This document shows positions 422 through 62,916 of a DNA stretch of 64,000 nucleotides, piece after piece; the first letter of the stretch is position 1, and every line of letters begins with the position of its first letter. Under the pieces are notes generated by a model. That model searched no databases. It was not told where the DNA came from and worked only from the letters and a program-made list of their open reading frames with translations. Source of the DNA: Octopus vulgaris (Eukaryota). The DNA lies in contig OX597843.1 in NCBI GenBank assembly GCA_951406725.2, positions 18,476,001-18,540,000 of the forward strand, in the 5' to 3' direction. The position numbers were made by a program, and so were the translations under genes.

Positions 422-493
422 ATCTATTCATGTAAATAATATTCCGCATATAGAAAAAGGGATATTCCAAGATCTTCCGAGTTTAAAGGAATT
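422..493 (+). CDS. LRR exon 1 (class A) [24 protein letters not shown]
   Basis: 72 nt, tatag/ATCT...GAATT/gtaagt, phase 2-2. Confidence 0.9.

Positions 494-62916: not shown

Follow-up and report, generated by a model that had tools for sequence, protein, structure and literature searches.

A group-3 adhesion GPCR gene of Octopus vulgaris with a block-copied LRR array and an LU, SEA-like, HormR and GAIN ectodomain

Receptors of the ADGRA/GPR124-125 family have the domain order LRR-Ig-HormR-GAIN. An octopus-specific expansion of adhesion GPCRs was described by Ritschard et al. 2019 (PMC6408891) as group 3, which comprises 21-22 sequences over three species, lies in tandem clusters, and has LRRs in 5 of 22 members and a Death domain in one. 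In the published tree, the nearest human relatives of group 3 are ADGRG1-6, and its expression was reported in nerve cord, suckers, skin and gills (PMC6408891). Adhesion GPCRs that bear an LU domain were described in starfish (PMC9410279, PMC11595613) and in molluscs and arthropods (PMC13719153), and a figure legend of the last, a 2026 paper, includes LRR, GPS and 7TM among its domain symbols. The text of these LU-GPCR papers gives no function, no SEA or HormR assignment and no octopus expansion, and leaves undecided whether independent origin or loss accounts for the distribution.

The gene described here belongs to group 3. Three proteins with homology matches to it (A0A0L8FLR8, A0A0L8HDZ7, A0A0L8GB41) appear under group 3 in the PMC6408891 supplement, and the Octopus 7TM clade that holds its O. 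sinensis counterpart (P0036) also contains P0189, P0191 and P0005, whose UniProt entries are group 3. GPS, adhesion 7TM, LRRs and tandem clusters are common to the published group and this gene's family. The text of PMC6408891, however, names no LU, SEA or HormR (its supplement has one SSF57302 row and no SEA row), and its 21-22 sequences over three species compare with 40 LRRCT-LU-GPS arrangements in this genome alone. The original prediction, made from the letters of the DNA, knew of no characterised receptor with this order of domains. In the open literature we found neither the full LRR-LU-SEA-HormR-GAIN order nor a function, and the figures or supplements of PMC13719153 may show the order; that part of the claim stands, whereas both the family and LU-bearing GPCRs had already been published. 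The SEA assignment, the growth of the LRR array by five-exon blocks, the GPS His-to-Tyr replacement and the light-organ expression of the squid member were not found in print.

Gene model and domain order

The window, the whole 64,000-nucleotide stretch that was analysed, corresponds to C30:18476001-18540000 of the 2.8-Gb O. vulgaris genome. Every one of the 29 exons predicted from its position 422 to 62916 could be located, flanked by an AG acceptor and a GT donor. Together they make 3051 nt, or 1016 codons, with 0 stops, compared to 68 and 60 stops in the alternative frames, which bears out the stop-free frame of about 1016 codons that had been claimed. Fifteen exons came from a scan for AG-72 nt-GT with an LRR pattern and the other 14 were picked by reading the sequence; the scan rule returned 15 exons on the plus strand, none on the minus strand and none in any of 50 local shuffles.

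With flanking DNA included, the full gene model has 37 exons that encode 1386 aa in an unbroken frame (Table 1). A signal-peptide/LRRNT exon and two further LRR exons lie just upstream of the window, which itself contains TM1 only, and the rest of the 7TM is encoded in five exons just downstream that end in TAA. The product has a hydrophobic N-terminus and consists of a signal peptide, 17 LRR exons, LRRCT, LU, a ferredoxin-fold module, HormR, GAIN and a complete 7TM with seven membrane segments.

Table 1. Features of the gene (window positions, unless prefixed C30)
Feature	Position	Strand	Remarks
Signal-peptide/LRRNT exon	C30:18470018-18470205	+	upstream of window
LRR exons D, E of first block	C30:18472636, C30:18474255	+	upstream of window
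LRR exons A, B, C closing first block	422-493, 3010-3081, 4793-4864	+	
Second LRR block D-E-A-B-C	8852-8923, 10603-10674, 11492-11563, 13064-13135, 13723-13794	+	
Decayed E/B-type LRR exon copy	15882..15953 (approximate ends)	+	without GT donor; outside reading frame
Third LRR block D-E-A-B, without C	18401-18472, 19393-19464, 20802-20873, 23631-23702	+	
Last LRR exons D, E and terminal F	26700-26771, 27742-27813, 30140-30211	+	also in O. sinensis P0036
LRRCT exon (CxC...C...C)	37262..37419	+	
LU / three-finger domain, two exons	39512-39603, 41208-41391	+	12 Cys, CCxxxxCN end, phase-1 introns either side
Ferredoxin-fold module, likely trimmed SEA, three exons	43177-43259, 46807-46859, 49339-49496	+	phase 1-1
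HormR, two exons	52239-52353, 53743-53912	+	phase 1-1
GAIN, five exons	55252-55483, 55780-55951, 57975-58133, 61313-61441, 61839-61988	+	GPS = Y-L-T
Stachel end and TM1 exon	62801..62916	+	
TM2-7 and stop, five exons	C30:18541039-18552773	+	beyond window

Pfam searches run exon by exon found GPS on exon 28 above the cut-off (E 8e-14), while HRM (1e-3), GAIN (0.04), UPAR_LY6_2 (0.045) and LRR_8 (9e-5 and 9e-3) were all below it on these single short exons. The O. sinensis RefSeq model P0036, which agrees with our gene model in 962 of 987 residues, unites in one protein the last three LRRs, LRRCT, LU, the SEA-like module, HormR, GAIN and 7TM. On this orthologue, GAIN is found below the cut-off (Pfam E 4e-4) and the Class B2 7TM is found with 7tm_2 at E 3e-37; seven hydrophobic segments are present and all TM exons were located. 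The gene thus has a GAIN/GPS directly before the membrane part and a Class B2 7TM, as an adhesion GPCR does, and the prediction of one adhesion GPCR with LRR array, LU, HormR and GAIN is upheld by the spliced frame, the GPS and the complete 7TM. That the gene was hidden from gene calling is true insofar as neither P0036 nor the O. vulgaris model P0035 (582 aa, mid-SEA to TM4) is complete, but both already cover parts of it. Between the two isoforms of P0036 there is a single difference, one residue where exons 28 and 29 meet, which suggests that the pair was probably modelled from spliced reads.

This gene, like its duplicate and its O. sinensis orthologue, has Y-L-T at the GPS in place of the canonical H-X-S/T triad. 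This triad is not required of adhesion GPCRs, of which uncleaved members exist. As the GPS histidine is the catalytic base of cleavage (PMC13062082) and is here replaced by tyrosine, the receptor is predicted to remain uncleaved; its Stachel-like sequence is intact. Of 67 LU-bearing proteins (isoforms counted), 62 have H at this residue, 3 have R and 2 have Y. The paralogue models P0003, P0016 and P0017 have R-L-K instead of H-L-T at the GPS and are without HormR. Judging from these sequences, the family has apparently lost GPS cleavage on more than one occasion.

Growth of the LRR array and of the gene family

Each of the 15 LRR exons in the window is 72 nt long and phase-2/phase-2. The gene's 17 LRR exons can be sorted into classes that follow one another as DEABC DEABC DEAB DE F, and exons of the same class are 72-91% identical and have flanking intron sequence in common. 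Because both the exons and their flanking introns match, we conclude that a five-exon block was copied in tandem as the array grew, and the LRR sequence therefore recurs about three times. The predicted expandability of LRR number is confirmed by this copying and by its spread among Octopus paralogues: a motif pattern that undercounts repeats gives 3-21 LRR motifs in 18 Octopus proteins versus 1-5 in 19 non-Octopus proteins.

Comparison of 19 same-class pairs of LRR exons gives dN/dS 0.26, which shows purifying selection. A test for positive selection on the concave face of the LRRs of this gene found none: within classes, pN is 0.134 on the concave face versus 0.211 at convex and other positions, with no excess on the former, and comparison to the recent duplicate gives dN/dS of 0.31 and 0.58, respectively, from small counts. 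Since the concave face is not the fast-changing part in this gene, nothing here points to an arms race.

The introns hold repeats and remnants of other kinds. A 138-bp tandem repeat (window 8323-8741, about 3 copies) is expanded to roughly 5 kb at the corresponding site of the duplicate gene, and a 184-bp tandem repeat (23750-24489) has about 4 copies at 95-98% identity. The intron before LRRCT contains a minus-strand retroelement fragment (33386-35540) with two open stretches (406 and 340 aa), of which the second carries what we take to be reverse-transcriptase motifs; the duplicate gene and the region downstream of the window contain similar DNA. A mariner-like transposase motif fragment at about 16575 and an isolated C2H2 zinc-finger motif at about 50869 are probably mobile-element remnants.

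Matches in this genome number at least 65 for the LU exon, 59 for LRRCT, 54 for GPS and 35 for the SEA-like exon. An LRRCT lies at most 40 kb upstream of 57 of the 65 LU matches and a GPS at most 60 kb downstream of 43, with both present for 40. Forty-five of the 65 are on C29-C31, where they form birth-and-death clusters. On C31, 10 of 12 LU matches are without a GPS match within 60 kb downstream in this lower-bound search. The models P0006, P0008-P0011 and P0014 read LRR-LU-SEA-HormR-SEA, without GAIN or TM. Such loci and models may make up a side line of the family that is secreted or truncated.

The duplicate of the gene, almost identical to it, is found some 0.97 Mb further downstream (C30:19445311-19525345, L026-L034). 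Its 12 LRR exons keep the order of the window gene. Beginning with the terminal LRR, its 20 exons match at 94-100% identity, and of 298 codons in the 7TM, 7 differ synonymously and 16 non-synonymously. Its exon 26 has lost one base in a T run, which indicates either a pseudogene or an assembly error. For the duplicate, neither a signal-peptide exon nor the first five LRR exons could be located, and there is a 100-N gap upstream. Among the other neighbours, an upstream gene at C30:18417579-18441909 has SEA-HormR-SEA in genomic DNA, as does an opposite-strand paralogue (L013-L016; window-equivalent 87269-123227, minus strand) that lies tail to tail with the gene about 10 kb past its stop codon.

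Identity and range of the ectodomain modules

Phase-1 introns separately bound LU, the SEA-like module and HormR. In paralogue models, LU is repeated up to three times and SEA or HormR is missing or repeated; the same domain order as in P0036 is found in one model in P0024 (21 LRR motifs) and P0189 (18 LRR motifs). The latter two represent an O. bimaculoides paralogue with a C-terminal intracellular Death domain, an immune-type signalling module.

The LU has 12 Cys and the pattern that defines membership (8-10 conserved Cys and a CCxxxxCN end), and its Cys pattern is kept across 28 aligned proteins. The LU of a Lingula relative clears the Pfam cut-off for Toxin_TOLIP, and the Atlas model matches Ly6/uPAR clusters at TM 0.78-0.80, under the tool's naming bar. 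In the Atlas feature search, all leads for LU were below 0.9 and no usable match was obtained for the SEA-like module.

Residues 110-200 of the model of that module fold as beta-alpha-beta-beta-alpha-beta with pLDDT 72-85. Mean pLDDT of the AF2 models was 49.9 for P0036 and 43.6 for P0042, and only their LRR/LRRCT, SEA-like and GAIN-A parts can be used, those for LU, HormR, GAIN-B and 7TM being poor. The best Atlas match by query TM was a SEA cluster (0.72, under the naming bar), and a Foldseek search gave no match at E<=0.001. Compared to 48,161 PDB chains, the module superimposes on MUC16 SEA (Z 8.0, rmsd 3.0, 96 aligned) and GPR126 SEA (Z 7.8, rmsd 4.4, 98 aligned), with SEA entries and unrelated ferredoxin folds tying at the top ranks. 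Pfam SEA, which had no match on Octopus proteins, gave matches at the corresponding position of Haliotis (E 5.5e-5) and of Argonauta (E 0.013) that fall short of the cut-off, the score in orthologues being 23.7 bits where 26.4 bits are required. With module boundaries taken from a joint alignment, an HMM from 10 non-cephalopod modules finds the octopus SEA-like modules (best E 7.5e-8; orthologue 0.03), and hhalign relates octopus to non-octopus modules at 93%. In the alignment, the octopus module has lost about 12 residues after strand 1. Considering (i) the tie with other ferredoxin folds, (ii) the Pfam matches under the cut-off, and (iii) the HMM link to non-octopus modules, a trimmed SEA domain is the likely identity of this module, short of proof. 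The original prediction had left a module of about 100 aa unassigned: it is indeed a separate module where the ADGRA Ig would sit, but it is probably assignable as SEA.

The domain order had further been expected to be restricted to one lineage. Word-indexed searches indeed returned Octopus alone (5 of 5 and 32 of 32), which reflects the insensitivity of such searches, for a profile search then found other phyla and an Octopus-only range was rejected. We looked up 20 profile matches, chosen for a full-length or LU match: 2 are from Octopus, 1 is unnamed and 17 are from 16 other genera, namely Argonauta, six gastropods, three bivalves, Lingula, Tubulanus (two proteins), Lamellibrachia and three echinoderms. 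LRR and GPS are present in 17 of these 17 non-Octopus proteins, and LU is detected in 11 by an octopus-only LU profile and aligns with its Cys pattern in the other 6; echinoderm members have a Ser/Thr-rich stretch where SEA would be. Lineage restriction is thus contradicted by molluscs, a brachiopod, a nemertean, an annelid and echinoderms, all of which carry LRR, LU and GAIN. The complete order was also read in one frame in 1155- and 1161-aa ORFs on Logan contigs of 4.2 and 4.4 kb, both of which are probably spliced transcripts.

In a quick 7TM tree of 93 rows, made without bootstrap and leaving out 24 isoform or duplicate ids, 21 Octopus rows form a clade (SH-aLRT 98) that is sister to the two Logan sequences (100) within a mollusc group (91), and the vertebrate ADGRG rows are in an unresolved fork with the octopus family. 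These alignments and the tree point to LU-bearing adhesion GPCRs being one old family. The architecture, shared with 16 other genera, is therefore old, and what is specific to octopus is the expansion and the long LRR arrays.

Proposed function and comparison with known receptors

We propose, with a probability of about 0.5, that the gene encodes an intact ADGRG-like group-3 adhesion GPCR that binds a repetitive outside surface, most plausibly a microbial or other foreign one at epithelia of the body, and that is expected to signal uncleaved. The periodic LRR solenoid would provide avidity for a polymeric ligand, the LU-SEA-HormR part would act as a stalk that relays binding or pull to GAIN, and the Stachel, still attached, would engage the 7TM by a non-dissociation route and activate a G protein. 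The C-terminal -ETNI may, as we presume from its motif class, bind a PDZ scaffold.

Light organ and accessory nidamental gland are organs that house bacteria. The single squid group-3 member, cluster_8002, has LRR, GPS and 7TM in the PMC6408891 supplement and is placed by this annotation, not by its sequence; it is labelled group 0 in the expression sheet and group 3 in the InterPro sheet. Its expression shares are 0.84 in light organ, 0.16 in accessory nidamental gland and 0.001 in brain (PMC6408891). Among the 58 squid GPCR rows examined, of about 235, it is the only one with a light-organ share >0.8 and one of 2 in which both organs together exceed 0.95.

The birth-and-death clusters, the spread in LRR number, the enrichment of group 3 in skin, suckers and gills and the squid light-organ gene lead us to place foreign or microbial surfaces slightly ahead of self-adhesion. 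The latter, a possibility that we take seriously while giving it less weight, is that paralogues form a surface code for adhesion or wiring in the arm nerve cord and suckers, complementing protocadherins, with matrix or cell-surface ligands as for GPR126. It is the hypothesis of Ritschard et al. 2019, who reported the axial nerve cord as the site of peak expression, as well as tandem clusters (PMC6408891), and it agrees with a SEA-HormR-GAIN core that is probably common to ADGRG6 and with the conserved LRR concave face of this gene. However, tissue differs widely by member, with one at 0.71 in skin and another at 0.39 in viscera, C. minor members peak in gill (PMC6408891), and the squid member is nearly absent from brain.

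LRR and LU folds bind soluble proteins in other receptors, so that a soluble protein or peptide could be recognised by LRR and LU together, as by LGRs or the ectodomains of TGF-beta receptors, and a TGF-beta receptor II cluster is, as a lead, among the LU feature matches; the adhesion-type 7TM and GAIN and the 3-21 LRRs among paralogues, unlike a fixed hormone site, make this improbable. It is more improbable still that the LRR exons are a separate gene, or the upstream ones unused relics of a receptor with few LRRs, even though the O. sinensis model begins at the third-last LRR, the O. vulgaris model begins in the SEA-like module and one decayed exon lies inside the array, since a single signal-peptide exon heads the unbroken 1386-aa frame, 17 of 17 LRR exons keep AG/GT at the dN/dS given above, and 12 of 17 recur in the same order in the duplicate.

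Recognition of foreign surfaces can be extended to a wider and rather doubtful reading, in which an old bilaterian ADGRG-type sensor of bacteria at symbiotic or barrier epithelia would have been turned in octopus, via shuffling of symmetric exons, into a repertoire of 40+ receptors plus transmembrane-less forms, and the 17 LRR cassettes, which can be skipped in frame, could add splice diversity. This would amount to G-protein-coupled pattern recognition; the sensing of bacteria is hinted at by the squid member's expression in light organ and nidamental gland. In any case, the predicted uncleavable member beside cleavable paralogues offers a test pair for cleavage-independent signalling, and the squid member is a lead for a role in bacteria-housing organs that is approachable in the Euprymna-Vibrio model.

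The gene is one further member of the published octopus expansion; the layout spans lophotrochozoans and echinoderms, and the expansion alone is octopus-specific. With LU GPCRs of the LyAr2/LyAp2 type, it shares an LU in the ectodomain of an adhesion-type 7TM protein. With ADGRA/GPR124-125, to which the original prediction compared it, it shares N-terminal LRRs with LRRNT/LRRCT, HormR, GAIN and 7TM. However, ADGRA has an Ig where this gene has LU and the SEA-like module: Pfam gave no Ig match at E<=1 on 5 family proteins, and the 12-Cys LU is in its place. The 7TM probably groups with ADGRG, the comparison to ADGRA being indirect, as no ADGRA chain is among the 60 structure matches listed. Membership of ADGRA is rejected, with ADGRG nearest both by structure match and in the published tree, and ADGRG (G2/G4/G6) replaces it as the comparison family.

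The best solved-structure matches of GAIN+7TM are ADGRG2 and ADGRG6 (E 5e-60 and 8e-58), and ADGRG6/GPR126, together with ADGRG2 and G4, is the closest solved relative of this part. ADGRG6 has the order SEA-HormR-GAIN (PMC6954182), which is the order here if the likely SEA is accepted, HormR and GAIN being found below the cut-off; the sequence match to 6v55 is limited to the HormR end and GAIN. The domain map ties the octopus family to GPR126-like receptors. Unlike GPR126, the octopus gene has Tyr in place of the GPS His, and no furin or GSVVV site was seen in the beta2-beta3 loop of its module. Pfam scans of this family's proteins found no CUB and no PTX; where ADGRG6/GPR126 has these two domains, the octopus receptor has its LRR array and LU instead.
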